Both the position numbers and the translations under genes were made by a program. Positions 17,087-38,817 of a stretch of DNA of 43,771 nt are shown here, one piece after another. The stretch comes from Chloroflexota bacterium (lineage in GTDB: Bacteria > Chloroflexota > Limnocylindria > Limnocylindrales > CSP1-4): positions 1 to 43,771 of the forward strand of contig JANPDJ010000124.1 of assembly GCA_031431395.1 (NCBI GenBank), given 5' to 3'. A model generated the notes under the pieces. That model worked only from the letters and a program-made list of their open reading frames with translations. It did not search any database and was not told the DNA's origin. Within the stretch, counting starts at the first letter, position 1. Each line of letters starts with the position of its first letter.

Positions 17087-19507
<2,421 letters not shown>

Positions 19508-21968: not shown

Positions 21969-22202
21969 GATCCTGTGTCCCGTTTCCCTTCGGCTGATCG
22001 GCGGCTCGATCATCGAGCCTCTCGTCCGAGCTTGATCCCTGGACCTGAGAGCGATGTGAGTGGTGGCTGAGATCCTCGACCTCGGACGTCGTGCGGCCCT
22101 TGTAGTGCTCGTCCGAACCCTCACCGCCGTGACCTGCGTGCCCCCGTGCCCGCCATGGCCACCGACGTGCATCAAGAGCATTCCGCCGACGAGGCCCGCG
22201 TA
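21937..22202 (-). pseudogene. 5'-truncated, frameshifted small His/Gly-rich membrane protein gene (DUF2933-like)
   Basis: YAGLVGGMLLMHVGGHGGHG continues as GHAGHGGEG...DHDQLGSHGCH only if one G is added to the G5 run (plus-strand C5 at 22141-22145). Confidence 0.45.
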
Positions 22203-22218: not shown

Positions 22219-22746
22219 CTATGTGGCTGGTCGGGAATCGCCAGATGCCCAGAGGCAGCCGGCAATCCACGCGAGCAGCGCGAAGACAGCGGCAACCAAC
22301 CCAGCGCCCGGGTCGAGGAGAAGCACCGAAACCAGCGCGACCAGTGGGAGCGAGCACAGCCATAGCACCAGTGCTGTTCCGAGGGGGCTTTCCCCTTGGG
22401 AGGTATCGCCGCGCAGGCTTCGGAGGATCGACCAGCGCTCGCCACGCCTGAACTCGATCTGGCCGTGATAGCGGCCCATCGCGCACGTGAACCGCACCTC
22501 ACCAGGCGGCTGGGGCGGAAGCACGATCGTGGTGTCCGCGGACGGGGCGAGACGTCGTTCCAACCGCGGCGAAGAGAACACCACCCGCTCGGAGCAGGCT
22601 TCGTTGTCCAGGCGATGGAAGACGAGCCGAAGCGGCGCGTCGGCTCGGGCGACGATCGATTGGGGTCGATAGCCGTGATCGACTGTGATCTCCACCTGCT
22701 GCTCGCCGGCGGCATCCGTTCGCGCCCGCATCGGGTGGGCGACCAT
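22219..22746 (-). CDS. CupA/EfeO-type cupredoxin domain with C-terminal transmembrane hairpin
   Basis: ITVDHGYRP, ACSERVVF, FTCAMGRYHG, two C-terminal TM helices. Confidence 0.8.
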   Translation of the reverse strand: MVAHPMRARTDAAGEQQVEITVDHGYRPQSIVARADAPLRLVFHRLDNEACSERVVFSSPRLERRLAPSADTTIVLPPQPPGEVRFTCAMGRYHGQIEFRRGERWSILRSLRGDTSQGESPLGTALVLWLCSLPLVALVSVLLLDPGAGLVAAVFALLAWIAGCLWASGDSRPAT

Positions 22747-22749
22747 CGC

Positions 22750-22935
22750 TCAGAAGATCCGCGTGACGAGGAGCCCGGTCAGCACGACCAGGGCGATGAG
22801 CGCAAGCTGGTGAGAAACAACGGCGCCCATGGCGCTGGCGCCGGTCGTCATCATGGCGCCGCCCAGAAGCAGAACGTCGGCGAGGGCGAGGATCACGACA
22901 ATCAGCAACAGCGTGATCAGGGTGTCATTCGGCAT
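22750..22935 (-). CDS. Small two-TM membrane protein
   Basis: 61 aa, hydrophobic, GGAMM motif. Sits directly behind a hexamer-repeat promoter and is probably leaderless. Confidence 0.65.
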   Translation of the reverse strand: MPNDTLITLLLIVVILALADVLLLGGAMMTTGASAMGAVVSHQLALIALVVLTGLLVTRIF

Positions 22936-22957
22936 GACGACACTTCACCGGTTGAAC

Positions 22958-22996
22958 CTGAAGGTCTGATGAGCCACGGGTAACGGCCGACTGAGA
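22958..22996 (-). promoter_or_regulatory. OmpR-family (MprA-box-like) hexamer array, 11-bp period
   Basis: Plus strand CTGAAG 22958, ATGAGC 22969, GTAACG 22980, CTGAGA 22991. Confidence 0.65.
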
Positions 22997-23011
22997 AGTG
23001 CGTCAGAGCGC

Positions 23012-23878
23012 TCAGACCGTGAGGAGGATGCCGAAGCCAAGCGCGAGGACCACGATGGCCAGGACGGTCTTCGTTCCACCCGCGTGCTCGAGATGCCAGC
23101 GGTTGACGACGCGGATCAAGCCGGGCCGGCTCGCGAGGACGAGGAGCGCAACCAGCGGCGTGATGTACGCCAGGTTGTAGAGAGCGAGGCCTCCGAGGCC
23201 GGCCGCGACCGTCCCGCTGGCGCCCAGTAGCGCAATAACGCCGAGGTAGACGGCCCCACTGCACGGCACCGTGCAGAGTCCAATGAGCACGCCACCACCG
23301 AAGAGTGCCCCTCGGGAAGTCGAGCGCGCCCAGTCACGCATCCGGCCATGCAGCGCATGTGGCGCTTCCAGCTGCCAGCGGGCATCCGGCACCAGAACAT
23401 CGCGCAGCATCCAGAGACCCATCCCGACTGCGGCAAGCGCCGCGATGCGGCTTGGCAGGTGGTTGCCGCCGAACCCGGTGAGCGACGCGACGACCGTCAG
23501 GAGTCCCAGCCCCAGCAGGAAGTACGTCAGCAGGACGCCCGCGACGAAGAACGCCCCAAGGCCGAGGACCGTCCGACTGGCCGTAGACGCGTCTGGTCCG
23601 CCACCGTGCCCCGTGGAAGCGAGAGATTGCCGCGCAGCGAGACCAAGAGCGAATGTGGCGAACAGGATCAGGACACCGAACGCGCACGGGTTGAAGCCGT
23701 CGAGGAAGCCGGCTGCAATGATTGCGGGCACACCGAGATCTCCAAGCGCCTGGTGGTCCATGGGTCGAGGAGCGACGGTGAGGATGGCTCCAGCCGACGC
23801 CAGGACGACGATCCCAACAGCGAGGAGCAGCAGCTGCCGCGGCCGGGTGTTCGATGCGTTGACAGCCCCGCGCGTCAC
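23012..23878 (-). CDS. CcdA/DsbD-beta family transmembrane electron transporter
   Basis: GFLDGFNPCAFGVL and LCTVPCSGAVY paired PC motifs, 6-7 TM helices. Confidence 0.8.
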   Translation of the reverse strand: MTRGAVNASNTRPRQLLLLAVGIVVLASAGAILTVAPRPMDHQALGDLGVPAIIAAGFLDGFNPCAFGVLILFATFALGLAARQSLASTGHGGGPDASTASRTVLGLGAFFVAGVLLTYFLLGLGLLTVVASLTGFGGNHLPSRIAALAAVGMGLWMLRDVLVPDARWQLEAPHALHGRMRDWARSTSRGALFGGGVLIGLCTVPCSGAVYLGVIALLGASGTVAAGLGGLALYNLAYITPLVALLVLASRPGLIRVVNRWHLEHAGGTKTVLAIVVLALGFGILLTV

Positions 23879-24387
23879 GTCGTCACCGTGAGCTTGCCCT
23901 GCATCGACGGGTTCGCCTTGCCGCCGCAGCAGATGTCGCAGTACCAGCTGTACGTTCCAGCCGTGGAAGGGGCCGTGAACTCGAACACCTTGCTGCTCTC
24001 GGGCCCTACCTTCCAGTTGATGCTGAGTGCATCGATCGCGAACTGATGCCAGCCGCCGCCGTCGCTATGCATCGAGCTGTCCATGCTGGCGAGCTCGATC
24101 TTCACCGGCTGACCGGCCTTGACCGTCAGGGCCGCCGGGTCGAACCCGCCCATGCTGGCGTGCACCTGGATCGCTGCTGAGTCGGTAGCAGCAGGCCCCT
24201 GGAGCCGGATTAGGACGAGCGAGATGGCGCCGCCTCCAACGACGAGGGCGATGATGGCGAAGACAGCGAGCCGGAGCGGCCGAGGGAGATGGCGCTCCCC
24301 CCGTCGACGTTGTTCGCCTCCTGCCGCTCGGCGTACAGCCCGCGGCTGGAGTGCATCGACGCGGCCGTGGGAGTCTTGATCGCTCAT
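23875..24387 (-). CDS. Membrane-anchored cupredoxin with atypical CxxCC copper loop
   Basis: TM anchor, SMHSDGGGWHQF, WYCDICCGGKANPSMQG. Confidence 0.8.
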   Translation of the reverse strand: MSDQDSHGRVDALQPRAVRRAAGGEQRRRGERHLPRPLRLAVFAIIALVVGGGAISLVLIRLQGPAATDSAAIQVHASMGGFDPAALTVKAGQPVKIELASMDSSMHSDGGGWHQFAIDALSINWKVGPESSKVFEFTAPSTAGTYSWYCDICCGGKANPSMQGKLTVTT

Positions 24388-24778
24388 CGTCTCGTCCCTT
24401 CTTCAAGTGCAACGTGGGATGGTGCCGCCGCGCTGCTGGCGGTACGTGCGTCACCAACACGGAGCCCGTTCCTGCTGAGCGCCGTGGGCAACAATCCGTC
24501 GACCTCGGGCTGCGACTCGCGGCTCGCCAGGCAGTCGCGAAGCCCCAGCGCAACGAGTCTCACCAGCAGGGAGTCCAGAGAGCCGCGCGCGGCTCGCAGT
24601 TGCTGCGTGACCTGCGGGAACGGCTGGGTTGTGCCGATCATGGCGGCGAGCGCGCTGACCTGGCCGCTCGCCGGCGGTCGCCGTTAGCGGACCGGTCGGC
24701 GCGTCCGAGCAGCGCAGTCGCGCCAACGACCGCCACAACAACGAGTACTCCCGCCGCCAGACAGCCGATCGCCTTCAC
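24384..24778 (-). CDS. Frameshifted CsoR/RcnR-fold protein with N-terminal transmembrane helix
   Basis: GGAGG RBS and GTG 24778 give MKAIGCLAAGVLVVVAVVGATALLG. Adding one base near 24671 joins this to ASGQVSALAAMI..FPQVTQQLRAARGSLDSLLVRLVALGLRDCL (132 codons including stop). Confidence 0.6.
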
Positions 24779-24819
24779 CAGGATTCCTCCCTAGGTGACA
24801 ACGAGCGTCGAGTGGCGCG

Positions 24820-24858
24820 GTGAGTCGGGCGTGAGTGGAACCTGAATGCCGGCTGAGA
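24820..24858 (-). promoter_or_regulatory. OmpR-family (MprA-box-like) hexamer array, 11-bp period
   Basis: Plus strand GTGAGT 24820, GTGAGT 24831, CTGAAT 24842, CTGAGA 24853. GACGCT follows 10 nt downstream on the minus strand. Confidence 0.7.
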
Positions 24859-25040
24859 AGCTGGCTGATGGCACTTCGGGCCCTGGAGAAACCGTCGGGC
24901 AAAGCAGCCTGGCGGGGCTGATTCAATGCGATCTCTTGGGCAAAGTCCTCGCGGGGAGCGACGTCAAGATCAGCACGTCTTTCCTATGGCCCTGTCGTAG
25001 GTGCACAATGGACAGAATGCCCGAACGAGCGAGGAACCCT

Positions 25041-27605
25041 ATGACCGGCGTATTCGAGGCGGGCGGTCTGCTCCGCGCAAGCAGTGCCCAGGCGCTCGAG
25101 ACTTACCTGCGTCGGCAGGCGGGTATTCGTGACGCGCAGGCGAATGCTGTCTCTCAGACTGTCACCGTCGCATACGACGAGAGCGCGCTGAACGCGGACG
25201 CCGTCCGAACGCTCATCGAGCGCTTCGGGTGCAACTGCGGCGGGATGGTTGTCCCGTCCAACCTGTGCCGGGACGAGCAACCGGCCGTCATTGGCAGCAC
25301 GGTCCCGCATCGCGGTGGAGATGCGTCCACGGTTGCGGCCGAGCGCCTCGGCCACGCGCTGCCTGCGCTGGCCACCCCCGGGGCTGCCGAACACGCTGGG
25401 CACCGGATGACAATGCCGGCCGCAGGCGCGCCGGATGCCGCGCCACACGGACTGCACGCTGAACACACGATGGCAATGCCGGCAGCCGCTGGTGGAGAGA
25501 ACGCGTCCGAGCACGCGGGACACGCGCTTGCCGTCCCCGGCGTTCGCGCCCCGGCAGCAGGCGAAATGACCCAGATGGCCCACGCCATGGGACATGACGT
25601 CGGGATGACCATGGACCAGATGGTCCTCGACATGCGCAACCGCTTCATCGTCGCATTCATCCTGGCGATCCCGATCTTCCTGTACTCGCCGCTCGCGACC
25701 GAGGTCTTCAGGATCCGCCTCGGAACTCCGTTCGGCGTCGACCCGAACCTCCTCGCCTTCGTCCTCGCGACTCCCGCCGTCGCATGGAGCGGGAAGATGT
25801 TCTTCGTCGGGGCGTATCGGGCCCTCCGCAACGGGACGCTCGACATGTCGGTCCTGGTCGCCCTTTCGGTCGGCAGCGGCTACCTGTTCAGCGTCGCCGC
25901 GACCTTCCTGTTCAAGGGTGAGGTCTTCTACGAGGCGGCGGTCGTCCTGCTGGCGTTCGTTCTCTTCGGACACTGGCTCGAGATGCGCGCTCGGGCCGGG
26001 GCCTCGGATGCGATCAAGGCGCTCCTAAACCTCACGCCGCCGAAGGCGACCGTGATCCGAGGCGGCGAGCCGATCGAGATCCCGACGGCAGAGGTCGTCA
26101 TCGACGACATCGTCCTGATCCGGCCCGGCGACAAGGTCCCGGTCGACGGCGTCATCATCGATGGCAGCTCGGCGGTCGACGAATCCATGATCACGGGCGA
26201 GAGCGTGCCGGTCGAAAAGACGGTTGGCTCGAATGTCATCGGCGCGTCGATCAACAAGACCGGCACCTTCCGGTTCAAGGCGACGAACGTCGGCGCGGAC
26301 ACCGCCCTTGCCCAGATTGTCAAGCTCGTCCAGCTCGCCCAGAATTCGAAGGCACCGGCGCAGCGGCTGGCCGACCGGGCGGCCCAGTGGCTCGTTGCGG
26401 CAGCCGTCATCCTCGGGCTCATCACGTTCTTCGGATGGCTGACGATCGGCGGCTCGACGTTCGTCTTCGCCCTCACGCTCGCCATCACCGTCGTCATCAT
26501 CGCCTGCCCCGATGCGCTGGGCCTGGCCACACCGACAGCGATCATGGTCGGTACCGGTCTGGGGGCGCTCAACGGCATCCTGTTCAAGAACGCGACCGCG
26601 CTCGAGCAGGCCTCGAAGATCGGGGTGGTGATCTTCGACAAGACCGGCACGCTGACCGTCGGCCAGCCGCGCGTCGTCGAGCTGATCGGCGCCGGCAACC
26701 CCGTCAGCGAGGATGAGGTTCTGCGACTCGCGGCGTCGGCGGAGGCCTCCAGCGAGCATCCACTCGCGCAGGCCGTGGTGGACGCGGCGAAGGAACGCAA
26801 GCTCGCACTCGTTGCGGCGACCGGCTTCAACGCCGTCCCGGGCCACGGGCTTGAGGCGACGGTGGACAGCCGGGCGGTCCTCGTGGGGAATGCCAAGCTC
26901 ATGCGGGACCGCACCATCGACTTCGCCGCGCTTGAGTCCCGAGCCGATGAGCTGGAAGGCGCCGGTCGCACGGTGGTGCGGGTCGCCGTCGATGGCAAGG
27001 CGGGCGGCCTGATCGCCATCGCAGACGCGGTCCGGCCCAGCGCGAAGGAGACGATCGAGCGCCTCCACAACCTCGGCATCCAGGTGGCGATGTTGACCGG
27101 CGACAACCGGGCCACCGCCGAGCGGATCGCCGCCGAGCTCGGACTCGACACCGTATTCGCGGAGATCCTGCCGGGCCAGAAGGCCGACAAGGTCAAGGAA
27201 CTCCAGGCCGCCGGCAAGCTGGTGGCCATGGTTGGCGACGGGATCAACGACGCCCCGGCCCTCGCCCAGGCTGACGTCGGGATCGCGATCGGCGCCGGCA
27301 CGGACGTCGCGGTGGAGACAGCCGACATCGTGCTGATGAAGAGCGACCCGGTTGACGTGCTGGGCGCCATCGCCCTGTCGCGTGCGACCGTCAGGAAGAT
27401 GCGCCAGAACCTCTTCTGGGCCGTCGGGTACAACTCGGTCGCGTTCCCGATCGCGATGGGTCTCTTCTACCCTGCCTTTGGGTTTGTCCTCCGGCCCGAG
27501 ATCGCGGCGATCAGCATGGCCGGAAGCTCGTTCCTCGTGGCCGTGAACGCGCTACTCCTGAAGCGTACGAAGCTCGAGGGGATCCGCCGCTACGGCGCAA
27601 CCTGA
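25041..27605 (+). CDS. Copper-type P1B ATPase with CPD transmembrane motif and His/Met-rich N-terminal linker
   Basis: GAGGA RBS before ATG 25041. Degenerate HMA fold followed by CNCG...C, EHAGH/M repeats, [33 protein letters not shown]. Confidence 0.9.
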
Positions 27606-27685
27606 GCCTGAAACGGCCAGCAGGCGTGTCGCATTGGCAAGCGGCGGACGCATGTCCGAAGGTCGGTCGGCCGGCTGGCGGAGGT

Positions 27686-28569
27686 TCACGGCGCGTCATC
27701 CGTGCGCCCCGCTCTGAGGGGCCCAAAACGGAGGATGAATCCGCCAGCGTGATCGCTGCCGCGCAGGCCGCCCAGGAACTCGTCGCGGCAACCTGGTGCG
27801 CAAACCAGAATGTGTCGCCGTCGCGGTCGGCGCTGACCGCCCGCTCGCGCTCGACGGCCATGCCGCATACGGGGTCCGTTGCCATCGTGACGATATCCTG
27901 GAAGGCGCCGTCCTCGAGCCACAGGACCCGGTCGGCGATGTCGCGGATCCGCTGGTCGTGGCTGACGATGACGACGCTCCGGCCCTGCTCCTTCGCGATC
28001 CGTCGGAGGAGACGCATGATCTCGTGACCAATCTTGCTGTCCAGGTTGGCGGTGGGTTCGTCCGCCAGGATGAGCGTCGGGTCGTTGATCAACGCCCGCG
28101 CGATGGCCACCCGCTGCTTCTCGCCGCCCGACAGCTTCTCGGGGAGGAAGTCGAGGCGTGCCTGGAGCCCAAGGTCGGTCAGGAGCGCCCTTGCCTTGTC
28201 GCGCGCAGCGCGAGGCTTCAACCCGGCGAGCTGAGCAACGATGGAAACGTTTTCGAGGACCGAGAGCGCCGAGAGCAGGTTGAAGTCCTGGAAGATGAAG
28301 CCGAATCGGCGAAGCCGGATCTGCGGGAGATGTCCCTCTGAAAGCGCGCTGATCTCGGTCCCGTCGAGGTGGATCGAGCCGCTGGTCGGCTTCAGCAGCG
28401 CGCCCATCATGGACAGCAGCGTCGTCTTTCCCGAGCCCGACGGACCCATGATCAGGACGACTTCACCGGGCGCGACCGCGAGGCTGACCCCGCGCACCGC
28501 GAGCACCGCCGTGTCGCCGTTGCCGAATCGCTTGCAGACGTTCCGAACGTCCAGCGTCAATGCGGTCAT
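27686..28569 (-). CDS. LolD/MacB-type ABC ATPase fused to C-terminal YHS domain (frameshift near 27803)
   Basis: [22 protein letters not shown], then DPVCGM...FWF. Adding one base restores [11 protein letters not shown], with stop at 27686. Confidence 0.8.
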
Positions 28570-29696
28570 GGCAACGCTCCTCTACGGAAGACGATCGCGG
28601 GGTCGACGCCCGAGACCTGGCGGATTGGCAAGATCGCCGCCAGCCCCGCGATCAGCGCCGCGACCAGGGCAACCTTGGCGAGCGACGCGACGGTGATCGA
28701 CAACTCGAGATTCAGGCCGGTCAGCGGCACCACAAACGCGAGCAGGCCGGTGAATGCGAGGCCGGCGAGGAACCCACCGGCGACGCTCAGGAACGCCTGG
28801 ACCAGAACAACCCGATAGAGCATCCGGTTCCTGGCACCGAGGGCCTTGAGGACTCCGTATTCGCGTCGCCCGGCAAGCGTCGCAACGTAGACGGTGAGCG
28901 CGACGACCGCGAGACCGACGACGAACCCGATGGCGTTCATGATCGAAATGACGTCGGCGCTCATGTCCATCGTCAGCCGCCTCTCCTGCGCCGCGAAGTC
29001 AGCGGTCGACTGGGCAGTCACCCCTGACACCTGGCGCTCAATCTCGGTCGCGACAGCATTGGGTGATCTCCCCTGCGCGACCTTGGCCAGCACGAAGCTG
29101 ACCACCGCGGCACCGCCTCGCATCGCCTGGAAGTCGTCGAACGACACGAATGCAACCGAGTTGACGAGGCTGGCTGTCCCCTCCGATAGCCCGACAATCC
29201 GTGCTTCGCCGCCGAGGACGGTGACCGTGTCCCCGATTGATACACCCGCTGACCTGGCGAACCCTCGATCGACGACGATCTCGCCCCGACCGGCCCGACT
29301 TGAGCCCGCGACCACGTTCCATGGCCCGCCCATGGAGGCGCCCGATGGCAGGCCCACGACGTAGGCGACGGCCCGCTCGTCGCCGGCCGCGACCGTGTCC
29401 GTCGCTTCGAGAATCGGAGTCGCCTCGGCGACACCGTCGACCGCCCGTACCTCATCGGTCACCGATGCCGAAATGAAGCTGGACACCATATGAAGATTCC
29501 GAACGCCAGCCTGGCTCACCCAGACGTCCGCGCCCGCTCGGTCGATGTACGCCGTCAACTGGTTCGAGACGCCCGCAAAGATCGCGTCGAGGGCGAGCAC
29601 CAGCGACAGGGCGAGGGCGACGCCGCCAAGAGAGACGGCGAGCCGCACTCGGTTCCGAGTCAGGTTGCGCCGCGCCAGGAGCCCAGTCGCACTCAT
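28566..29696 (-). CDS. MacB/FtsX-family ABC permease
   Basis: LARRNLTRNRVR, GADVWV, REYGVLKALGA, DPAIVFR. ATG 29696 overlaps the upstream stop. Confidence 0.88.
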   Translation of the reverse strand: MSATGLLARRNLTRNRVRLAVSLGGVALALSLVLALDAIFAGVSNQLTAYIDRAGADVWVSQAGVRNLHMVSSFISASVTDEVRAVDGVAEATPILEATDTVAAGDERAVAYVVGLPSGASMGGPWNVVAGSSRAGRGEIVVDRGFARSAGVSIGDTVTVLGGEARIVGLSEGTASLVNSVAFVSFDDFQAMRGGAAVVSFVLAKVAQGRSPNAVATEIERQVSGVTAQSTADFAAQERRLTMDMSADVISIMNAIGFVVGLAVVALTVYVATLAGRREYGVLKALGARNRMLYRVVLVQAFLSVAGGFLAGLAFTGLLAFVVPLTGLNLELSITVASLAKVALVAALIAGLAAILPIRQVSGVDPAIVFRRGALP

Positions 29697-30790
29697 CCCC
29701 GGAAGACCTCTGCCGGTTCGAGGCGGGCGACGGCCCGTGCTGGGATGAGGGCAGCGAGGAGAGCCATGACCACACTGGCGACCAGAACCACGCCGACGGC
29801 AGCCGGCTCGATCTCGACCCGGAACTGCGGTCGCCAGGCCATGAGGCCCGTCGCCGCACCGTAGGCGAGGCCCACCCCAAAGACGGATCCCGCGACCGCG
29901 GCGATGAACGCCTGCATGGTCACGATCCGGTACAGGGTCCGGTTGCGGGCACCGATCGCCTTCAGCGCTCCGTACTCGCGGCGCCGTTCGACCGTCGCCG
30001 TGTAGATGACGAGACCGACGACAAGGACACCGACGACGAAGGCGATCGCGACCATCAACCCGATTGGAGCGTCGTAGACGCGGGCCATCAGCTTGCGGTC
30101 GTTGGCGATCACGTCGCTCTTGAGCAGCGCTTCCGAGCCCGGGATCGACAGCCGATCGCGGAGCGTTTCGGGGCTCGTTCCGCCGGTCGGCGTGACGATG
30201 AGGAAACCCTGGAGACCTGGTGTACGGAGCAGCGACTCGAGCGTCGTGATCCGGGCGAATGCGATGGAGCCTGCCCAGAATGTCGTCCCGTCCGAGAAGC
30301 CGACGATTGTGGCTTCCCGATCGAGCAGTCGAATCTGATCGCCGATCGCGATCGCGTGCTGCCGGGCCGCTGTTCGGTCGATGACCAGCTCGTCGTCGGT
30401 CGCCGGCTCGCGTCCCTCGGCGAGCTCCCATGGCCCTCCGCCCTTGGCCCGGTCATACCCGATCAGGAAGAACCCGTCCTTGCGGCCGTGGAGTTCGAAG
30501 ATCACGAACTGGGAGACGATCGGGATGACCCGCGCGACACCAGGAGTCCGCTGCACAGCGTCCTCAGCCCCCGCGGGAAGGGTGGAGCTCGTGCCCAGGA
30601 AGTCGCGGATTCCCCGTTCGGCCACGAGCACGGAACCCGGCGCGTGGTCGAGGTAGGCCGAGGCCTGGCGGTAGACCCCGGAGCGATACCCGGCCAGGAG
30701 GAGGATCAGTCCGATCGAGACGGCCACGCCGAGGACGCTGAGTAGAAAGCGCGTCCGGTCCCGGAACAGGTTGCGTCGCGCGATCAACAT
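29693..30790 (-). CDS. MacB/FtsX-family ABC permease
   Basis: IARRNLFRDRTRF, ERRREYGALKAIGA, LEPAEVFRG. Confidence 0.88.
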   Translation of the reverse strand: MLIARRNLFRDRTRFLLSVLGVAVSIGLILLLAGYRSGVYRQASAYLDHAPGSVLVAERGIRDFLGTSSTLPAGAEDAVQRTPGVARVIPIVSQFVIFELHGRKDGFFLIGYDRAKGGGPWELAEGREPATDDELVIDRTAARQHAIAIGDQIRLLDREATIVGFSDGTTFWAGSIAFARITTLESLLRTPGLQGFLIVTPTGGTSPETLRDRLSIPGSEALLKSDVIANDRKLMARVYDAPIGLMVAIAFVVGVLVVGLVIYTATVERRREYGALKAIGARNRTLYRIVTMQAFIAAVAGSVFGVGLAYGAATGLMAWRPQFRVEIEPAAVGVVLVASVVMALLAALIPARAVARLEPAEVFRG

Positions 30791-30793
30791 CGC

Positions 30794-31027
30794 TCAAGAC
30801 TCGACGACCCGGCCGGCACGATAGCCTGCCTTCTCGATCGCCTGGGCCAGCGAGGCCGGGCTCGTCTCGGCGGGGTCGTAGGCAACGTAGGCGGTCTCAG
30901 TTGCTGGGTTCACGTAGGCGCGAAGGACGCCGAACTTCGCTACGAGCTCGCGCTCGATCGTCAGGGCCCCGGAGCCGCCGCACCCCAGGCCGATGATCGA
31001 GATCCGGAGCCCGCGCACAACGTCCAT
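30794..31027 (-). CDS. HMA/CopZ-fold protein with single-Cys motif GLGCGGSG
   Basis: GV..AYVNPATETAYVAYDP...LAQAIEKAGY HMA pattern. Start ATG 31027. Confidence 0.8.
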   Translation of the reverse strand: MDVVRGLRISIIGLGCGGSGALTIERELVAKFGVLRAYVNPATETAYVAYDPAETSPASLAQAIEKAGYRAGRVVES

Positions 31028-31049
31028 GACGCGAGATTGACGCACCGGC

Positions 31050-31077
31050 CTGAGGCCAAGCTGAACGAAGCCTGAGA
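31050..31077 (-). promoter_or_regulatory. OmpR-family (MprA-box-like) hexamer array
   Basis: Plus strand CTGAGG 31050, CTGAAC 31061, CTGAGA 31072. On the minus strand this is followed by 10 nt, CAATCT, 6 nt, ATG. Confidence 0.8.
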
Positions 31078-31210
31078 CTTCTGGGCTCCGCAGGGGACGT
31101 TCACCAGTGGAAGCCGCGATTCGTCAGGGCCGCTTCGTTCGGCCCCGCCTCGCGTCATCTCCGCCCGGCCCAAATGGCTTGGAGGGTAAGAGACAGCCTG
31201 GGGTCGGCCG

Positions 31211-31238
31211 CTGAGAATGACCTGAGGTTCGGCTAAGA
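31211..31238 (-). promoter_or_regulatory. OmpR-family (MprA-box-like) hexamer array with no gene directly downstream
   Basis: Plus strand CTGAGA 31211, CTGAGG 31222, CTAAGA 31233. On the minus strand this is followed by 10 nt and CAGGCT. Confidence 0.75.
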
Positions 31239-31772
31239 ATCTCCGGCCAAAGTTACTGCGGCGAAGTCGGGGGCGGCGATTGCGGCCCTGCGGTCAGCGA
31301 TGGCGCATGCGCGACGTGCCCGACGGAGCTGCCGGGCGATCACGATGATCCCGACCGCATTCATCCCGATACCGACCAGGAACAGCGGCGTCCGATAGGC
31401 ATCGAGGAAGACGGCCGCGGCCGACAGGCCGAGAAACGGCAGCAGATCCACCAGGTGGTGAGCACAGCAGGCGAGCATCGCGGCCGCGCTCGTGCCGGTG
31501 CCGGCGGCAGTGACCGCGGCAGCTGTCCGGTGGCGTCGGTCCACCAAACGGAGCTCGGCGAACAGAGCGATCTGGGTACCGAAGCCGGCCGCGATGAGGC
31601 CGACGAAGGGAGCGTCGGCCATGAGCTGGTCGAATGCGTGCCCGGTGCCCTGGGCGAGACTGATGATCCCAAGGTAGAGGGCGACGAGCGAGATGGCGCC
31701 GACGACCCCGGCGACCATCGAACGCGGCGCGACCGCGACTGGCGGGCGGAGCGGGTGGGCGAGGACGGTCAA
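31233..31772 (-). CDS. Membrane protein with CCAHH motif
   Basis: 4 TM helices, MLACCAHHLVDLLP. TTG start overlaps the upstream stop. Confidence 0.75.
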   Translation of the reverse strand: MTVLAHPLRPPVAVAPRSMVAGVVGAISLVALYLGIISLAQGTGHAFDQLMADAPFVGLIAAGFGTQIALFAELRLVDRRHRTAAAVTAAGTGTSAAAMLACCAHHLVDLLPFLGLSAAAVFLDAYRTPLFLVGIGMNAVGIIVIARQLRRARRACAIADRRAAIAAPDFAAVTLAGDS

Positions 31773-32236
31773 GGGCCGATTTCCCAGCGGAAGATCCGCT
31801 CCTGGATTTCGCCGACGCCCGCGAGGGTCAGTTGGATCCAGTTCGCGCCGGCGAAGAAGGTCGCTGCATTGCCATCGAAGCTGAGTGCCCCCTCGCGGTG
31901 GTGGCCGCCCTTCGACGCCGCCCATGGCCGGGCGGTCAGGGCCTGTCCGCGGTCGTTTCGCAGGACGGCGTTCGAGAAGTCGAGCGCATCGAGGTCCACG
32001 GAGTGCGTGTCGAGCCTTACGTCGAACGCGGCACCATCGGCCAGTCCGGCCCAGTCAACCACCACGGTCACCTGCCCCCCGTCACTGGTCCGCGTCGTGG
32101 CGGTTGTGGCGTTGGTGGCACTCCCCGATCCGGCCGCTGGGGTTATGGACCCCGACGCCTGAGGGCTCGACGCTGAGCAGGCGGAGATCAGGAGCGTGGC
32201 CGAGGACAACAGCACGGCGAGCATGTTCACGTTCAT
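31769..32236 (-). CDS. Lipoprotein of unknown function (THSVDL, GGHHREG motifs)
   Basis: Lipobox LLISAC, Ser/Thr linker, His motifs LDTHSVDLD and GGHHREG. Confidence 0.75.
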   Translation of the reverse strand: MNVNMLAVLLSSATLLISACSASSPQASGSITPAAGSGSATNATTATTRTSDGGQVTVVVDWAGLADGAAFDVRLDTHSVDLDALDFSNAVLRNDRGQALTARPWAASKGGHHREGALSFDGNAATFFAGANWIQLTLAGVGEIQERIFRWEIGP

Positions 32237-32259
32237 GGCTGCGACGTTGACCGGGTCAG

Positions 32260-32287
32260 CTGAGAGATGGATGAGTCCGTGCTGAGG
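32260..32287 (-). promoter_or_regulatory. OmpR-family (MprA-box-like) hexamer array
   Basis: Plus strand CTGAGA 32260, ATGAGT 32271, CTGAGG 32282. On the minus strand this is followed by 10 nt, CAACGT, 7 nt, ATG 32236. Confidence 0.8.
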
Positions 32288-32303
32288 AATGCCCGGCGGA
32301 AAC

Positions 32304-32336
32304 GGAACGCCGGCCGGGATGGCCGGTCGGCGTTCC
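32304..32336 (-). terminator. GC-rich hairpin downstream of the Met-rich gene
   Basis: 14-bp stem GGAACGCCGGCCGG / CCGGTCGGCGTTCC with 1 mismatch and a short T run on the minus strand. Confidence 0.55.
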
Positions 32337-32350
32337 AGGATTGAGCCTGC

Positions 32351-32656
32351 TCAGTCGGTCGAGCGATGCTGATCGTGGAGTTGCTGCATCTGAGCCGGAT
32401 TACACGCCCCGCTCGCGACCATCTGGTCGTGGAACGCGTCCATCTGCTTCATCTGCTCGGGCGTCATCATTCCGGAGCCGCCCATCATTCCGGAGGCGCC
32501 CATCATTCCCGAGGCGCCCATCATTCCGGAAGCCATCGATGGGCCGGAGGAGGCCGACGGAGTCGGGTCCTGGGCGGCCACAAGGCCGGCGGCCCCGAGG
32601 AAGAGCGCCCCAGCCAGGGCGCTGCCGGCAAGGATCCCAAATCGCTTCGATGTCAT
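32351..32656 (-). CDS. Small secreted Met/His-rich protein, putative copper-binding
   Basis: Signal peptide ending VAA-Q, SGMMGA repeats, MKQMDAFHDQM..C...MQQLHDQH. Confidence 0.75.
   Translation of the reverse strand: MTSKRFGILAGSALAGALFLGAAGLVAAQDPTPSASSGPSMASGMMGASGMMGASGMMGGSGMMTPEQMKQMDAFHDQMVASGACNPAQMQQLHDQHRSTD
32465..32536 (-). repeat. 18-bp in-frame tandem repeat x4 (SGMMGA)
   Basis: Plus-strand CATCATTCC(G/C)GA.. units at 32465, 32483, 32501 and 32519. Confidence 0.9.
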
Positions 32657-32666
32657 CGTTCGTCTC

Positions 32667-32888
32667 CTAGATCCCGAGCAGGCGGCGTGCCTGCTCGTAT
32701 TCCGCCTGGTTGATCTCGCCGCGCGCAAAGCGCGCCTTGAGAATTTGCGCGGAGTCGTCGGCCGGTCTCCGATCTCGAGTCGGGATTGCTGAAACGACCG
32801 CCCACACGATGACGACCAGCACGACGACCGCGAGGGCCATCCAGATCCAGCCGTCGAACCCTGAACCCCACGCAAGACCGGTCATCAT
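32667..32888 (-). CDS. SHOCT-domain membrane protein
   Basis: One TM helix then ILKARFARGEINQAEYEQARRLL. GGAGG RBS. Confidence 0.85.
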   Translation of the reverse strand: MMTGLAWGSGFDGWIWMALAVVVLVVIVWAVVSAIPTRDRRPADDSAQILKARFARGEINQAEYEQARRLLGI

Positions 32889-33012
32889 CTGCCGTTGCCT
32901 CCTGAGGTCGGCTCCGGATCGGCTCCGACAGCTCGAATGGTCAACCAGAGCCTTCAAGCGGCGATGCTCGGCAGCTTCAAGTTCTGATCAAGATTGACTG
33001 GGAAGGCGAATC

Positions 33013-33051
33013 TGCCAGCGCGCTGCCAGCCTCGACTCACCTGGCTCTCAG
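33013..33051 (+). promoter_or_regulatory. OmpR-family (MprA-box-like) hexamer array, plus orientation
   Basis: TGCCAG 33013, TGCCAG 33024, ACTCAC 33035, TCTCAG 33046, then 10 nt and CACCGT, upstream of the plus-strand YHS gene. Confidence 0.65.
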
Positions 33052-33107
33052 GCCCGTCGGCCACCGTTCTTCCATCACGACGTTGAACCAGAGAGGAACG
33101 GGAACCG

Positions 33108-33284
33108 ATGAATTCGACCCTTGTCACCAGTGATCCCGTGTGTGGGATGTCAATCGATGTGGCAACCGCGATCGTCGTCGAGCATGACGGCCGCACGTAC
33201 TACTTCTGCGAGTCCGCCTGCGCTGATACGTTTCGCGACGATCCCAGCACGTGGATCCCGCGGGCCGAGCCAGTCGAGGCCTGA
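33108..33284 (+). CDS. Stand-alone YHS/TRASH domain protein (58 aa, not in ORF track)
   Basis: MNSTLVTSDPVCGMSIDVATAIVVEHDGRTYYFCESACADTFRDDPSTWIPRAEPVEA*. GAGAGGA upstream. Confidence 0.88.
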   Translation: MNSTLVTSDPVCGMSIDVATAIVVEHDGRTYYFCESACADTFRDDPSTWIPRAEPVEA

Positions 33285-33286
33285 CG

Positions 33287-34387
33287 TCAGCTTGCTTCCC
33301 GCAGGAGGGTCACGATGAACGAGGAGCCGTGGCCTGGTCCCTTGCTTTCCGCTGAGATCCGACCGCCCATCAGCTCGACGAGGGCCTTCGCGATCGCGAG
33401 GCCGATACCCGAACCCCCGAGAGCGCGCGAGCGGGATGGATCCACGCGATAGAACCGCTCGAAGACTCGTTCTCGTTGCTCGTCCGTGAGACCAGGACCC
33501 TGGTCCACCACCGACACTGTCACGGCCTCAGGGTCCGTCCGGACGTAGACGGTCACCACCGTCCCATCGGCGGTGTAGCGGACCGCATTACTCAACAGGT
33601 TGTCCAGAACCTCGACGAACCGATCGCGGTCGGTCGTGACCGGCGGCACGATGGGATCGGCCTCCAGCCGGAGCTCGATTCCTCGTTCCCCCGCGGCAAT
33701 GGTGTATCGCTTAATCGCTGTCGAGACGAGAGCCGTCATATCGACGGATTCGCGCTTCAGGGTGATTTGCTTCGCTTCGGCTCGCCACAGCTCCTGGAGA
33801 TCGTTGACCAGCCGCGTCAGGCGGGTTGTCTCGCGCCGAAGCACTGACCAGGTTGCATCACTGGGCCGGATAATGCCGTCCTCGAGCCCCTCGAGGTAGC
33901 CGTCGAGCGTCGCCAGCGGGTTGCGCAACTCGTGCGCCACGTCCCCGACCAGCTGGAGCCTCCGTCGCTCCGTGGCCTCGAGCGACGCCGCCATCGCGTT
34001 GAACGACTGAGCGAGATCGCCAAGCTCGTCAGCCGACGTCACGGGCACGCGCTCGGCGTACCGCCCGGAGGCGATTCGGCGGCTCGCGACGGCCAGTCGG
34101 CCGATGGGCCGCGACAGACGGATCGATAGCCCCAGGCTGACCACGATCGCCGCCATGGTCGCCACTACAGCAGCGACGATGAGCGCCGTCCGGATGGCAT
34201 CCTGGAAGGCGGCCCGGATCAGGGTGTTCATCATGGCGCTCATCCCGGCCGTCGCGTGGCCCATCGCCGAATCGAAGGCCGCTGGTGCAACGAACCCGAC
34301 AGCGAGGGACAACGTCGCGGCTCCCACGATCACCACCAACAGGTGGGAGACGATCAAGCGGTTGCCGATCCGGTGTCGCGGGCTCAT
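33287..34387 (-). CDS. HAMP sensor histidine kinase (BaeS/CopS-like) with short His/Met loop
   Basis: Two TM helices flanking MGHATAGMSAMM, H-box VAHELRNPL, N-box NLLSNAVRY, DQGPG, GSGIGL. Confidence 0.92.
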   Translation of the reverse strand: MSPRHRIGNRLIVSHLLVVIVGAATLSLAVGFVAPAAFDSAMGHATAGMSAMMNTLIRAAFQDAIRTALIVAAVVATMAAIVVSLGLSIRLSRPIGRLAVASRRIASGRYAERVPVTSADELGDLAQSFNAMAASLEATERRRLQLVGDVAHELRNPLATLDGYLEGLEDGIIRPSDATWSVLRRETTRLTRLVNDLQELWRAEAKQITLKRESVDMTALVSTAIKRYTIAAGERGIELRLEADPIVPPVTTDRDRFVEVLDNLLSNAVRYTADGTVVTVYVRTDPEAVTVSVVDQGPGLTDEQRERVFERFYRVDPSRSRALGGSGIGLAIAKALVELMGGRISAESKGPGHGSSFIVTLLREAS

Positions 34388-35088
34388 CGACCGCCTCCCA
34401 TCGCCCGGAAGCGGTAGCCGACGCCGCGCACCGTCTCGATGAACGTCGGTGAGCTGGCATCATCACCGAGCTTCCTGCGGACGTTGCCGAGGTGCACCTC
34501 GACGACATGATCGTCGCCGACGTAATCCATTCCCCAGAGGCGGTCGAGGAGCCGCTGGCGGGTGAAGACAACCCCAGGATCCTCGGCCAGGGTCAAGAGC
34601 AGATCGAACTCGACCGTCGTGAGCGTAATCGGCGCCCCCCGCAGGCTGACCGTCCGCTTCGGCCGATCGATCTGGAGATCGCCCCGCTCGAGCACGTCCG
34701 CCCGTGGTTCACCCGGCCCGATACGAGGTCGGCGCAGCAGCGCCTTCACGCGGACGACGAGTTCGCGTGGCGAGAAGGGCTTGGTCAAGTAGTCGTCGGC
34801 GCCCACCGACAGACCGACAATCCGGTCGATCTCCTCGGCCCGGGCCGTGAGCATGATCACATATGCGTCCGTGAAGCTTCGTGCTCGCCGCAGGACCTCG
34901 AGTCCGTCGAAGCCGGGCAGATTCACATCGAGAATGACAACATCAGGCGCCCGAACTCGGATCATTTCCAACGCCGTGGGTCCGTCACCGGCCGTGATCA
35001 CCTCCATGCCGTCGGCCTCGAGATAGCCACGCACCAGTTCAAGCATGGCCGTTTCATCGTCGACGACGAGGACCCGCGGGCCGGTCAC
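34384..35088 (-). CDS. OmpR-family response regulator
   Basis: VLVVDDE, ILDVNLPG, GADDYLTKPFSPREL, IETVRGVGY. Confidence 0.93.
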   Translation of the reverse strand: MTGPRVLVVDDETAMLELVRGYLEADGMEVITAGDGPTALEMIRVRAPDVVILDVNLPGFDGLEVLRRARSFTDAYVIMLTARAEEIDRIVGLSVGADDYLTKPFSPRELVVRVKALLRRPRIGPGEPRADVLERGDLQIDRPKRTVSLRGAPITLTTVEFDLLLTLAEDPGVVFTRQRLLDRLWGMDYVGDDHVVEVHLGNVRRKLGDDASSPTFIETVRGVGYRFRAMGGGR

Positions 35089-36493
35089 TGCGCCCGGACC
35101 GGAAGCGTGACCGTAGCGACAGTGCCCTCACCGGTGCGGTTGGCCAGCTCGATCGACCCGGCATGCGCCTCGACGATCCATCGCGCGATTGCGAGTCCGA
35201 GCCCGGTTCCCGCAGGCCGCATCTTCCGCGCACGCGCACCCCGATACAGGCGTTCGAAGAGCCGATCCCGATCCGCCTCATCGAGCCCGATGCCGGTGTC
35301 CTCGACGCGGACCGTCGCTCGGCCGTCGCGCACAGCGAGCGCGACCACCACGCTTCCACCGGCTGGCGTGTAGCGGGCCGCGTTCTCGAGCAGGATCCCG
35401 AAGAGATCCCGAAGGCGATCCCGGTCACCATCGACGATCGCTGCCTCGACCAACGAAAGGCTCATTCGCACGTGAGGCTCCGCAAGCCGTTCCCGCCGCA
35501 CGGATTCCACGAGCAGGGCGTCGAGTTCGACGGGACCCATGACAAGCCGGGCGCCGGACTCCGCTCTGGCCAGTGCCAGAAGATCGCCGATCAGGCGGCC
35601 CATTCGCTCGGCCTCGTCGCGGGCGTCGGCGAGGATCGCCTGGCGTTCCTCGGCCGGCAGGTCCGGGCGCTGCCCGAGCTCCAGGTTCGCGCGGATGGTC
35701 GTCAGCGGCGTCCGCAACTGATGGGACGCGTCACCGAGGAATCGCTGGAGGGTCTGGTGGTTGTGCTCCAGTGCCTCGAGCATTTCGTTGAATGCAACCG
35801 CCAACTCGCTGACCTCGTCGCCCGCGCGACCCATTTCCACGCGAGCGGCGAAGTCGCCTGACAGCGAGATGGCCCGGGCCGTTTCTGTGACGTCCGAGAC
35901 CGGAGCCAGGGCTCGCCGCGCCAGAATGAGGCCGCCGGCGAGCGCCAGGCCGATCACGAGGGCGCCGCCGATGATCAGGGCGGCGCTGACCGTGGTGAGG
36001 AGGTCCTGGAGTGACCGGGTGGAGTCGGCCCACGCAATGTATCCCACCCGGATCCCGTCTGGGAGGTTGACGGGTTCGACCGTCAGCCGGACGACGTCGT
36101 TTGCGAGGACGAGCTCCCGGATGGCGTGGGCGTGCCGATTCGCGTCCGTCAAAGCGTCGGCGCCGACCGAAAGCCTGGGCTTCCGGGGGGAGCGGAATCG
36201 GCGAGCTCCGTTCCGATTGCGTCGAGGACGAGGACCCGGCCGCCGGTCGAGGCGAATTGCGCGATCAGGCGCTGGGTCGGACGCAGGCGCCCGTCGGCAT
36301 CAATGTCCTGGGCAAATGCCCCCGCCGCGTGTTCTGCATTGGCGATCAGGCCGGCATTGAAGGACACCTCGAGCTGCTGGCGAAGAACCAGATACATGCC
36401 CGCGCCGAACGCCACGAGCGCGGCCGTGAGAAGCCCGGTGTAGATGAGCGCGAGCCGGGTCCGGATCGCGAGGCGTTTTGGAGACGTCCTCAC
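35085..36493 (-). CDS. Sensor histidine kinase (MprB-like), split by a single-base frameshift near 36175-36190
   Basis: ORFs 36149-36493 (TM1 and sensor start) and 35085-36152 (TM2, [20 protein letters not shown]) join into 470 codons including stop with +1 base. G6 run at 36185-36190. Confidence 0.85.
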
Positions 36494-37170
36494 TCTTTCA
36501 GGACGTAGCCGGCGCCACGGATCGTGTGGATGAGCCGGGGCCCGCCGATCATCTCGAGCTTGTTTCGGAGGTAGCGCACGTAGACCTCGAGGACGTTCGA
36601 CTCGCCATCGAAGTCGTACGACCAGACGTGCTCCATGATCACGTCACGCGTCAGCACCTTGCGAGGGTGGCGCATGAACAGAAGCAGCAGGCTGAATTCG
36701 GTGGTCGTGAGCTCGATCGTCCGGCCCATTCGACGCGCCTCCCGGGCGTCGAGGTCGAGTTCGAGATCCGCGAATCGAAGCACCTCGCCGGACGGGGCCG
36801 CCCGACGACGAAGCAGGGCGTGGACCCGGGCAAGGAGCTCCTCGAAGCTGAACGGCTTGACGAGGTAGTCGTCTGCCCCGGTCTCGAGGCCCACAACCCG
36901 GTCCTTGACCTCGTCGCGTGCCGTGAGCATGAGGATCGCGACCTCGTCACCCGACGAACGCAGCCGGCGCGTGACCTCGAGGCCATCGATTCCGGGCATC
37001 ATGACGTCGAGGATCACAAGATCCGGCAGGTGCTCACGAGCTTTCTCCAGGCCTTCCTCGCCCGATGCGGCCTCCACCACGCGGTAGCCCTCATAGGCGA
37101 GGCCGCGACGTACCACCGTCCGGATCTTCGCATCGTCGTCGACGACAAGGATGCGCGCCGCCTCGCTCAT
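36490..37170 (-). CDS. OmpR-family response regulator, MprA-like
   Basis: [68 protein letters not shown]. Confidence 0.93.
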
Positions 37171-37336
37171 GGCCTCGGCCTCCGCGTCAGTAAGTCGTCC
37201 CGTGCATCAGGCCCCTGCCGGGCGTCTCAGTCATGCCGGGCTCCATCGCATGCTCGACGCCCCGACTCGGGCGGTGCCACGGGCAATTCAGGCACCGCGC
37301 TCGAGACGGATCGCGATCCGAGCGTGCCCCTGGAAG

Positions 37337-37364
37337 CTGAAACCAGCCTGAGCGTCACCTGAGA
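37337..37364 (-). promoter_or_regulatory. MprA-box-like array TCTCAG-N5-GCTCAG-N5-TTTCAG upstream of the TCS operon
   Basis: Plus strand CTGAAA 37337, CTGAGC 37348, CTGAGA 37359. On the minus strand this is followed by 10 nt and CACGCT. Confidence 0.8.
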
Positions 37365-37482: not shown

Positions 37483-38211
37483 TCAGGGAAACGCGATGGC
37501 GAATGTCACGTGGCACGTGAGAGCAGCGACCAGGGCCGTGACGACAGGGAGCCACTCCATGGGCGCACCCTGTCTCGGTGGCGCGGCGTCGTCGAGAACC
37601 AGCGCGCTGATTCGCTCACGTGTATACGCACTGAACCACGATCCAGGGGTGCCGCCGGTGTCGTCGGTCGCCATCAGCGCTGATGCAAGATCACGCCGCT
37701 CGATCCCGAGCTGCAGGGCGTACGAGTCGGCAGTTCGTTCGAGATCGATCAGGCGGCGTTCCACGAGTCGGTGGGCAAGGGGCCACCATCCGATGAGCGG
37801 GAGCCACGCCTGCAGCGCGGCGGCGCGCAATGGAGCGCCGTGGCGCCGATGGTGCTCCTCATGTGCGAGAACGGCGCGCAGTTCATGCGGCGAAAGGCGA
37901 TCGGCCAGCCGGCCGCCGAGATAGATCCGCGGGTGAAATGCGCCGACGACGAACGCGCTCGATGCCCCGGGAAGAACTCGGCAGTCCAGGCCAAACGCGG
38001 TCCAGGGGCTGCTGGACCGATCAAGCTCGCGACCCATCAGGTGTCCACGGCCTATGGCGAGGGCCACGCGACCGGCCCAAACGGCCATCACCATCGCGGC
38101 CGCGTATTCGAAGGGCATGAGCGGATCGCCGCCTGCGATACGACCAATGACCAGGCAGAGAGCTGCCACCACGAGCGTCGCGGTGCCGATCAGCGTTCCG
38201 TTTCGAACCAC
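37483..38211 (-). CDS. M56/M48-like membrane zinc metallopeptidase (BlaR1-type, no beta-lactam sensor domain)
   Basis: AFVVGAFHPRIY, AVLAHEEHH (HExxH), ERTADSYA, LASAL. Confidence 0.82.
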   Translation of the reverse strand: MVRNGTLIGTATLVVAALCLVIGRIAGGDPLMPFEYAAAMVMAVWAGRVALAIGRGHLMGRELDRSSSPWTAFGLDCRVLPGASSAFVVGAFHPRIYLGGRLADRLSPHELRAVLAHEEHHRRHGAPLRAAALQAWLPLIGWWPLAHRLVERRLIDLERTADSYALQLGIERRDLASALMATDDTGGTPGSWFSAYTRERISALVLDDAAPPRQGAPMEWLPVVTALVAALTCHVTFAIAFP

Positions 38212-38216
38212 CTTGC

Positions 38217-38639: not shown

Positions 38640-38817
38640 TCCGCGGAGATTACCCCATCGTTGCACCAGCGAGTCGTACGTGCGCCCGCACAGAGCCAGG
38701 TCTTGGGGAACGGTCCGCCAAGGCACGCGCCGTTGCCGCTCACGGCCGGTCGTGGTGCGCCTGTTACCCCGCCTTGACCACTCGGCTCACAGATGGCGCC
38801 CGGCGCACGTCTTCATG

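Follow-up and report, generated by a model that had tools for sequence, protein, structure and literature searches.

The sequence analysed here (the window) comprises 43,771 nucleotides of contig JANPDJ010000124.1 (C124), part of a 3.22-Mb assembly of a Chloroflexota bacterium of the Limnocylindria (GCA_031431395.1; 375 contigs, about 68% G+C). Within it, eight promoters of a copper island, labelled A to H, share one architecture. Read on the coding strand, each carries three or four hexamers resembling TCTCAG at an exact 11-bp period, and after the last of these, exactly 10 nt on, stands a -10 hexamer of the CAnnnT type. We propose, with a probability of roughly two in three, that a response regulator of the OmpR/PhoB family encoded by the island itself, RR1 (36490-37170, minus strand), uses these arrays as its operators and would activate all eight promoters, including that of its own operon. 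Seven of the promoters had been described in a first-pass annotation, whose positions, 11-bp and 10-nt spacings and -10 hexamers (CAATCT, CAACGT, CACCGT, GACGCT, CACGCT, CAGGCT and TGAAGT) all stand; the eighth, array H (22072-22029, minus strand), had been overlooked.

The sites themselves, their statistics and conservation, the gene content and the protein similarities are shown here; that RR1 binds, that it activates and does not repress, where transcription starts and what the signal is are inferred. Phosphorylated RR1 would bind cooperatively in tandem, head-to-tail, to the (T)CTCAG units spaced 11 bp apart. Given a transcription start some 7 nt past the -10 hexamer, these units would cover roughly -50 to -23. 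The units would occupy the place of a -35 element, none being conserved there, and RR1 would recruit RNA polymerase to the weak CAnnnT -10, as PhoB and Mycobacterium tuberculosis PhoP do. Activation by OmpR-family proteins bound in tandem is a textbook mechanism. Jointly, the eight promoters would switch on cupredoxins, HMA and YHS proteins, a MacB-type ABC exporter, a CcdA-like protein and lipoproteins; array G would drive the operon of RR1, RR2 and their histidine kinases, HK1 and HK2, in a positive autoregulatory loop, and leaderless mRNAs are predicted for three of the eight promoters (A, C and E). To judge by the gene content, HK1, HK2 or both most likely sense copper, or envelope damage caused by copper.

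Eight promoters of one geometry

Sets of three CTCAG cores at period 11 were counted in the genome and in 10 sequences simulated with a third-order Markov model. Where at least 14 of the 15 core bases match, there are 6 in the genome against 0.2 +/- 0.4 in the simulations, five of the six lying inside the island; with at least 13 of 15 there are 9 against 2.4, six of them between 22 and 37.4 kb of the window. With at least 12 of 15 there is no excess (50 against 46.7). A 44-column matrix built from the eight window sites scores them at 28.6-44.8 bits; the next best places elsewhere in the genome reach 19.5 bits (an unrelated tandem repeat) and then 16.8, and no site of at least 20 bits was found elsewhere in the window's own genome. 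With each site left out in turn, six still score 18.7-32.4 bits; arrays A (22963) and B (24825) fall to 9.9 and 9.4, below detection, and are retained because their orthologous counterparts in the relatives reach 25.7 and 22.1 bits. Two other places were set aside: C302:6706 is a tandem GCTCAGGTCGG repeat unrelated to the arrays, and C259:6767 (16.8 bits) has no T at position 6 of the -10 and is followed by ordinary TTGACA-like hexamers.

Forty related genomes were compared. Orthologs of RR1 (88-90% identity) are present in three of them, G011, G003 and G020, each from another genus, and are absent from the two genomes of the window's own genus, where the best matches are 46-48% identical; because of this patchy distribution the island is probably mobile. 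In the 56.5 kb of island DNA from these three relatives (L021-L023), the window-trained matrix finds 17 sites of at least 20 bits. Several of them stand at promoters orthologous to those of the HMA and YHS genes, the cupredoxin operon and the genes for the 155-aa lipoprotein and the 61-aa peptide. BLAST alignments in these regions are confined to coding DNA (75-85% identity), and the cores are kept where the flanks have diverged. A strict pattern allowing at most one mismatch matches 18 times in the four island-bearing genomes (5, 5, 5 and 3) and its reversed control not at all. Sixteen of the 18 matches are on island contigs, and the other two, both in G011, lie ahead of genes for a CopA-type ATPase of 719 aa and a cupredoxin of 130 aa. 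Arrays in the relatives also precede a multicopper oxidase and CopA ATPases: in G011 and G020 a two-domain multicopper oxidase directly before RR1, and in G003 and G020 CopA genes. The arrays co-occur with RR1 in all four genomes.

These counts bear on a rival view, by which the likeness of the arrays is accidental or stems from duplication of a single promoter cassette, without a common regulator. What speaks for it is the lack of excess at 12 of 15 and the weakness of arrays A and B. The 14-of-15 count and the 18 strict matches against none in the reversed control lead us to reject it as hardly credible, and chance is excluded for the array set as a whole. As to duplication, spacer columns hold 0.1-0.8 bits and the hexamer cores 2-2.6 bits, and the sites are therefore not simple copies of one cassette; the orthologous promoters, too, have kept their cores and not their surroundings.

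The consensus was drawn from 26 sites, eight in the window and 18 in the relatives, with L022:10502 (15.7 bits) left out. The three proximal slots read (T)CTCAG, nCTCA(C/G/T) and TCTCAG; position 5 of the hexamer is A in 26 of 26 at all three, and position 3 is T in 22, 26 and 26. A fourth, upstream hexamer with at least four of the five core bases is present in 9 of the 26 sites. The -10 consensus is C (19/26), A (23/26), n, n, C or G, T (26/26). This invariance is partly circular, because the sites were selected by score. The 11-bp period is exact in the eight window sites and the 18 of the relatives, and the 10-nt gap to the -10 is found at every site. No sigma-70-type -35/-10 pair was found at any array, and because no -35-like element is conserved the promoters look activator-dependent. 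When L022:10502 is counted as well, the start codon falls 5-9 nt past the -10 in 11 of 27 sites, a distance kept at orthologous genes. The three window cases that had been noted earlier hold: an ATG follows the -10 after 6, 6 and 7 nt, at 22935, 31027 and 32236.

The regulator predicted to read the arrays

Two two-component pairs are encoded in a single minus-strand operon downstream of array G: RR1 (36490-37170) and HK1 (35085-36493), then RR2 (34384-35088) and HK2 (33287-34387). Both regulators carry a receiver domain (PF00072) and a winged-helix Trans_reg_C domain (PF00486). RR1 is most likely the one that binds the arrays, and the first-pass annotation, which had named the regulator at 36490-37170, thus chose the better of the two candidates. 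One line of evidence is genome G003 (92% complete), in which RR1 and HK1 are followed directly by regulon genes and six arrays score 21.7-29.9 bits. No RR2 ortholog was found anywhere in G003, the best match being 42% identical.

The recognition helices point the same way. Among proteins of solved structure, M. tuberculosis PhoP is nearest to RR1 (218 bits); its residues Asn212, Val213, Glu215, Ser216, Tyr217 and Tyr220 are reported to read a TCACAGC repeat (PMC4832192). RR1 retains five of these six base-contacting residues and has Val for Ser216, a change that may explain the T in place of A at position 3 of the box; its helix fits the TCnCAG box and that of RR2, which retains two of the six and has RegX3 and MtrA as nearest solved relatives, does not. 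In a maximum-likelihood tree the four RR1 sequences form one tight group that is a weak sister (86/73) of HtrA-linked regulators from Bacillota, and both stand inside a larger group (82/85) that also holds the actinobacterial HtrA-linked clade, with RR1 outside the actinobacterial subclade. RR2 stands apart, in another clade with good support (100/97). With the mycobacterial regulator of the HtrA-linked clade RR1 shares 56% identity and RR2 44%; between RR1 and the Streptomyces regulator the identity is 53%. The earlier description of RR1 as MprA-like is apt as far as it is a relative of the HtrA-linked clade at 53-56% identity, and not in the sense of an ortholog, its place in the tree being weakly supported.

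Some observations would suit RR2, alone or together with RR1, as the binder: it is co-transcribed with RR1 behind array G, it too belongs to the OmpR family, whose members are expected on 11-bp direct repeats, and it is present in three of the four islands. Since G003 has the arrays and no RR2 ortholog, and since RR2 keeps so few of the PhoP contacts, is kin to RegX3 and MtrA and sits in its own clade, we regard this as quite improbable. Another thought is that a chromosomal envelope-stress regulator of RR1's clade, encoded outside the island, reads the boxes, so that the island would be plugged into a host circuit; because the box is common to the HtrA-linked clade in several phyla, such cross-recognition is possible. 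However, no other RR1 homolog in the genome exceeds 48% identity, neither of the two HtrA-like genes there has the box, no site of 20 bits or more lies outside the island, and the arrays go with RR1 in all four genomes, patchily among genera, all of which makes a host regulator very unlikely. With RR1 as the predicted binder, the autoregulation proposed earlier fits the position of array G upstream of RR1's own operon.

As to the kinases, HK1 (minus strand) is split into two frames in the window by a 1-nt deletion in a run of C near 36176 (36149-36200). The frame is intact in the three relatives, and a contig from an independent metagenome (run X2) has an extra base behind 36176 with which the frame is whole again, so that the break in the window may be due to misassembly or to variation between strains. 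The outer domain of HK1 is about 130 aa long and has no cysteines, where the aligned Streptomyces kinase has two; a conserved cysteine pair is among the features reported for CssS (PMC12802291). HK2 has only a short Met/His-rich loop and scores 200.1 bits with the heavy-metal kinase model, for which the cut-off is 292.55.

Several points weigh against activation of the whole set by RR1 in response to copper. Arrays A and B are weak when scored alone, the placement of RR1 in the tree has weak support, and HK1 is frameshifted in the window, the one independent contig notwithstanding. Two transcription units of the island, the CopA gene at 24846-27605 and the operon of the SHOCT-domain and Met-rich proteins, have no array. 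RR1 scores 236.1 bits against a cut-off of 279.2 for the heavy-metal model TIGR01387, and the C-terminal part of HK1 188.6 against 292.55 for TIGR01386; because both are below threshold, the case for copper as the signal comes from gene context alone. Finally, the last hexamer lies between the -35 place and the -10, ending just 10 nt before the latter and within the spacer region, a position also compatible with repression: RR1 bound there would block RNA polymerase, and copper would relieve the block. OmpR-family proteins can act in this way, CutR being reported to repress htrB from position -17 (PMC12802291). No -35-like element is conserved, though, and the same geometry is seen at the Streptomyces htrA-like promoters taken below as htrB-cssRS, where CssR is reported to activate htrB (PMC12802291), so that we consider repression unlikely and retain activation by RR1.

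The box in HtrA-linked relatives and other known systems

Loci of RR1 homologs in the species collection were compared with the window, using the best 80 (42-63% identity). An HtrA-like protease gene adjoins in 17 of them, and the 11 matrix matches of at least 20 bits all lie within these 17 loci; a score of at least 18.9 bits is reached by 12 of the 17 and by one of the 63 loci without HtrA. HtrA-linked relatives of RR1 from Gaiellaceae, Streptomyces and Mycobacterium thus show this box, equally spaced, at the promoters of their own loci, a further line of evidence for RR1 as the binder. In Streptomyces, an array stands before an htrA-like gene that is leaderless by its geometry, followed by a regulator-kinase pair. 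TCTCAG-ACTCAG-TCTCAT arrays, with 10 nt to a CAnnCT -10 and leaderless htrA-like genes, are found in L031-L037, L051 (Streptomyces), L053 and L052. The order of an htrA-like gene and then a regulator-kinase pair is the one described for htrB-cssRS (PMC3498368 and PMC12802291), and by this gene order the Streptomyces htrA-like promoters are taken as htrB-cssRS.

The mycobacterial comparison drawn in the first-pass annotation, that of the arrays with the MprA box, is also borne out by sequence. In Mycobacterium heidelbergense, a regulator-kinase-HtrA locus has a perfect TCTCAG-N5-TCTCAG, 10 nt, GAAACT, 6 nt and then the GTG of the regulator, and the promoter of its HtrA gene has the same perfect repeat, 10 nt and CAAGGT. 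This locus is taken here as mprAB-pepD. Upstream repeats are lacking at the three loci of Mycobacterium type among the best 80 (L088, L095 and L097), which presumably resemble PrrA rather than MprA.

The HtrA-linked systems (Streptomyces CssRS-htrB and the mycobacterial locus) thus share with the islands the hexamer, the 11-bp period, the 10-nt gap and a -10 of the CAnnnT or GAAACT kind; their first gene is often leaderless and their recognition helices resemble that of RR1, to which the regulators are 53-56% identical. The islands differ in that their targets are copper genes and in number, with eight promoters in the window against one to three in the HtrA-linked systems. They also have no HtrA gene: none was found in the window or in L021-L023 (tblastn, E of 1e-3 or better). 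The sensor domain of HK1, moreover, is without the two cysteines that are reported for CssS (PMC12802291).

PhoP of M. tuberculosis (PDB 5ED4; transcription activation complexes 9JI3-9JI5) offers the closest structural parallel, with an 11-bp period, tandem head-to-tail repeats and bound dimers that replace the -35 contact. It is reported to bind 7-bp repeats with a 4-bp spacer in tandem, three or four repeats more tightly than two (PMC4832192), and its tandem dimers are described as displacing the contact of sigma region 4 with the -35 element (PMC11825685). Its box, TCACAGC against (T)CTCAG(C) here, differs at position 3, the base pair adjoining Ser216, and neither its regulon nor its signal is that of the island.

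Among copper systems, Corynebacterium glutamicum CopRS and the proteobacterial CusRS and CopRS resemble the island in having a regulator-kinase pair within a copper island and a multicopper oxidase and a P-type ATPase in the regulon. The C. glutamicum system is reported to be autoregulated, as proposed for RR1, and its CopR to bind an 11-bp-period direct repeat, TGAAGATTTnnTGAAGATTT, which occurs once in that genome, far upstream (PMC3140484); the island, by contrast, has eight promoter-proximal arrays of a different sequence. Unlike curated members of the heavy-metal two-component families, RR1 and HK1 are below the TIGR01387 and TIGR01386 cut-offs. Streptomyces CutRS, an OmpR-family pair tied to htrA genes and originally named for copper, is similar in kind; CutR was rejected as the type of binder, its box being reported as TAWATAAA (PMC12802291), which is unrelated to the arrays. 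Judged from these likenesses, the system probably works as an activator of the PhoP/MprA/CssR type; it is not a demonstrated member of either the MprA/CssR ortholog group or the CusR/CopR family. Full-text searching of the literature found no description of a TCTCAG box for a copper regulon.

A broader reading, which we offer tentatively and hold to be possible rather than probable, is that of a patchy, probably mobile copper island of Limnocylindria-type Chloroflexota whose transcription is nearly all wired to one regulator recruited from the HtrA-linked envelope-stress clade (MprA/CssR type), the TCTCAG specificity and the 10-nt geometry having been conserved across phyla. If this reading is true, it would suggest that HK1, having lost the cysteine pair, senses copper through the envelope damage it causes or through a new ligand site. 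With RR1 as the binder, the copper island would stand under a regulator of the envelope-stress type and not of the CusR/CopR, CsoR or CueR types. One box with one promoter geometry is common to relatives in Actinomycetota and Chloroflexota. The sites also amount to a complete, testable regulon prediction, with eight in the window and 26 in four genomes, for an uncultured lineage without any studied regulator. A by-product is the TCTCAG array at Streptomyces htrA-like promoters as a concrete candidate for the CssR operator. In print the CssR operator is unsettled: C(C/G)AGCT(G/T)CG has been proposed, doubtfully (PMC5157995), and a 2025 paper describes the CssR regulon as undefined (PMC12802291). 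If the broader reading is true, the TCTCAG box would also define that regulon.

The arrays one by one and the genes of the island

DNA of the window occurs in freshwater-sediment metagenomes. Using Pfam and NCBIfam, the copper island was found to span approximately 16.5-38.7 kb of the window. It encodes two CopA-type P1B ATPases (17087-19507 and 24846-27605, plus strand), two YHS proteins, three or four cupredoxin-like proteins, one HMA protein, a MacB/FtsX-type ABC exporter, Lgt and a BlaI/BlaR-like pair, in addition to the two-component operon. The genes so far identified behind the arrays are of copper type throughout, in the window and in the relatives, and each site has a gene downstream on the same strand. 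The first-pass annotation had spoken of a cell-envelope copper regulon of mostly uncharacterised small proteins; the copper genes are indeed there and the arrays are confined to them, but the regulon does not consist mainly of unknown proteins; it includes cupredoxins, HMA and YHS proteins, the MacB-type ABC exporter and the CcdA-like protein, with the multicopper oxidase and CopA added in relatives.

Array H (22029..22072, minus strand) reads TCTCAG-ACTCAC-TCTCAG, with the last hexamer at 22050-22045, 10 nt and CAAGCT, and scores 44.8 bits (32.4 when left out). By homology it corresponds in L022 to the promoter of a gene of CopA type. The 113-aa open reading frame (ORF; 21672-22013, minus strand) downstream of array H looks like a remnant, with homology to a CopA-type gene of G020 in its 5' region. 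Downstream of array H on the minus strand is also a cupredoxin lipoprotein gene (21073-21546).

Array A (22942..22996, minus strand) has TCTCAG, CGTTAC, GCTCAT and CTTCAG, 10 nt, TGAAGT and, 6 nt on, the ATG at 22935 of a 61-aa membrane peptide (22750-22935), followed by a cupredoxin-like gene (22219-22746); the mRNA is predicted to be leaderless, and the orthologous site L022:16615 (25.7 bits) is likewise leaderless by geometry. Array B (24804..24858, minus strand) reads TCTCAG-ATTCAG-ACTCAC-ACTCAC, 10 nt, GACGCT. The first ORF behind it is a 46-aa cupredoxin remnant (24638-24778, minus strand, start 24778) that corresponds to the N-terminal end of cupredoxins from G020 and G011 (129-130 aa), and the orthologous promoters, L022:13924 (22.1 bits) and one on contig C78 of G011, precede full-length cupredoxins of 129-130 aa. 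There follow on the same strand a gene at 24384-24641, a cupredoxin (23875-24387) and a CcdA-like membrane protein (23012-23878), the last assigned by eye and without a Pfam match. The 85-aa protein at 24384-24641 faintly resembles the CsoR/RcnR family of metal repressors, with an E value (0.0066) that misses the cut-off.

Array C (31034..31077, minus strand) reads TCTCAG-GTTCAG-CCTCAG, 10 nt, CAATCT, 6 nt and the ATG at 31027, and is predicted to give a leaderless mRNA, as are its orthologs L021:9397 and L023:6723 by geometry. Behind it lie the HMA protein (30794-31027), two FtsX/MacB permeases (28566-30790) and the ABC ATPase (27511-28569), all on the minus strand. The ATPase ORF and the convergent CopA ORF share about 95 nt (27511-27605). 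When the YHS protein is compared with G011 and G003 by tblastn, its match runs into the 3' end of the one to the ABC protein; no YHS domain is detected by Pfam in the window's ABC ORF.

Array D (31195..31238, minus strand) lies 161 bp upstream of array C and reads TCTTAG-CCTCAG-TCTCAG, 10 nt, CAGGCT. There is no convincing ORF in the approximately 120 nt between the two arrays (31078-31194); array D may be a promoter in tandem with C, or what remains after a gene was lost. It has a counterpart in L021 (L021:10010, 34.9 bits), and in G011 the counterparts of D and C are 613 bp apart, with the intervening DNA partly N.

Array E (32244..32287, minus strand) reads CCTCAG-ACTCAT-TCTCAG, 10 nt, CAACGT, 7 nt and the ATG at 32236 of a 155-aa lipoprotein (31769-32236), predicted as leaderless, after which comes a membrane protein with a CCAHH motif (approximately 31233-31700); orthologous arrays are found in L021, L022 and L023. 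Array F (33013..33067), on the plus strand, reads TGCCAG-TGCCAG-ACTCAC-TCTCAG, 10 nt, CACCGT, and stands 40 nt upstream of the YHS-domain gene (33108-33284, plus strand), with orthologs at L021:12279 and L022:7039. Array G (37321..37364, minus strand) reads TCTCAG-GCTCAG-TTTCAG, 10 nt, CACGCT, 150 nt upstream of RR1. That leader (37171-37320) retains the last 29 or so codons of a multicopper oxidase (tblastx match at 37185-37271); because a two-domain multicopper oxidase of 383-393 aa is intact between the array and RR1 in G011 and G020, the gene has been deleted in the window.

Between arrays E and F lies a minus-strand operon (32345-32957) without a TCTCAG array, encoding a membrane protein with a SHOCT domain and, after it, a secreted protein whose MMGASG repeats resemble Cu(I) ligands. 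A terminator-like hairpin (32326-32310) ends this operon just upstream of array E. Between the divergent SHOCT and YHS genes, a block (32895-32995) is conserved in the three genomes with RR2; it holds TTCAAG-N5-ATCAAG (32976-32992, 11-bp period) and a GTCGG...CCGAC hairpin just before the SHOCT start. Considered as a box for RR2, TTCAAG-N5-ATCAAG occurs once in the window against 0.15 expected, and 15 of 100 shuffles reach one match. Rfam gave no family at threshold anywhere in the window. Flanking the island on the minus strand (37483-38726), with the same neighbours in G020, are genes for a BlaI/CopY-family repressor and an M56 BlaR1-like membrane protease, a pair that may form a second, CopY-like layer of copper control.

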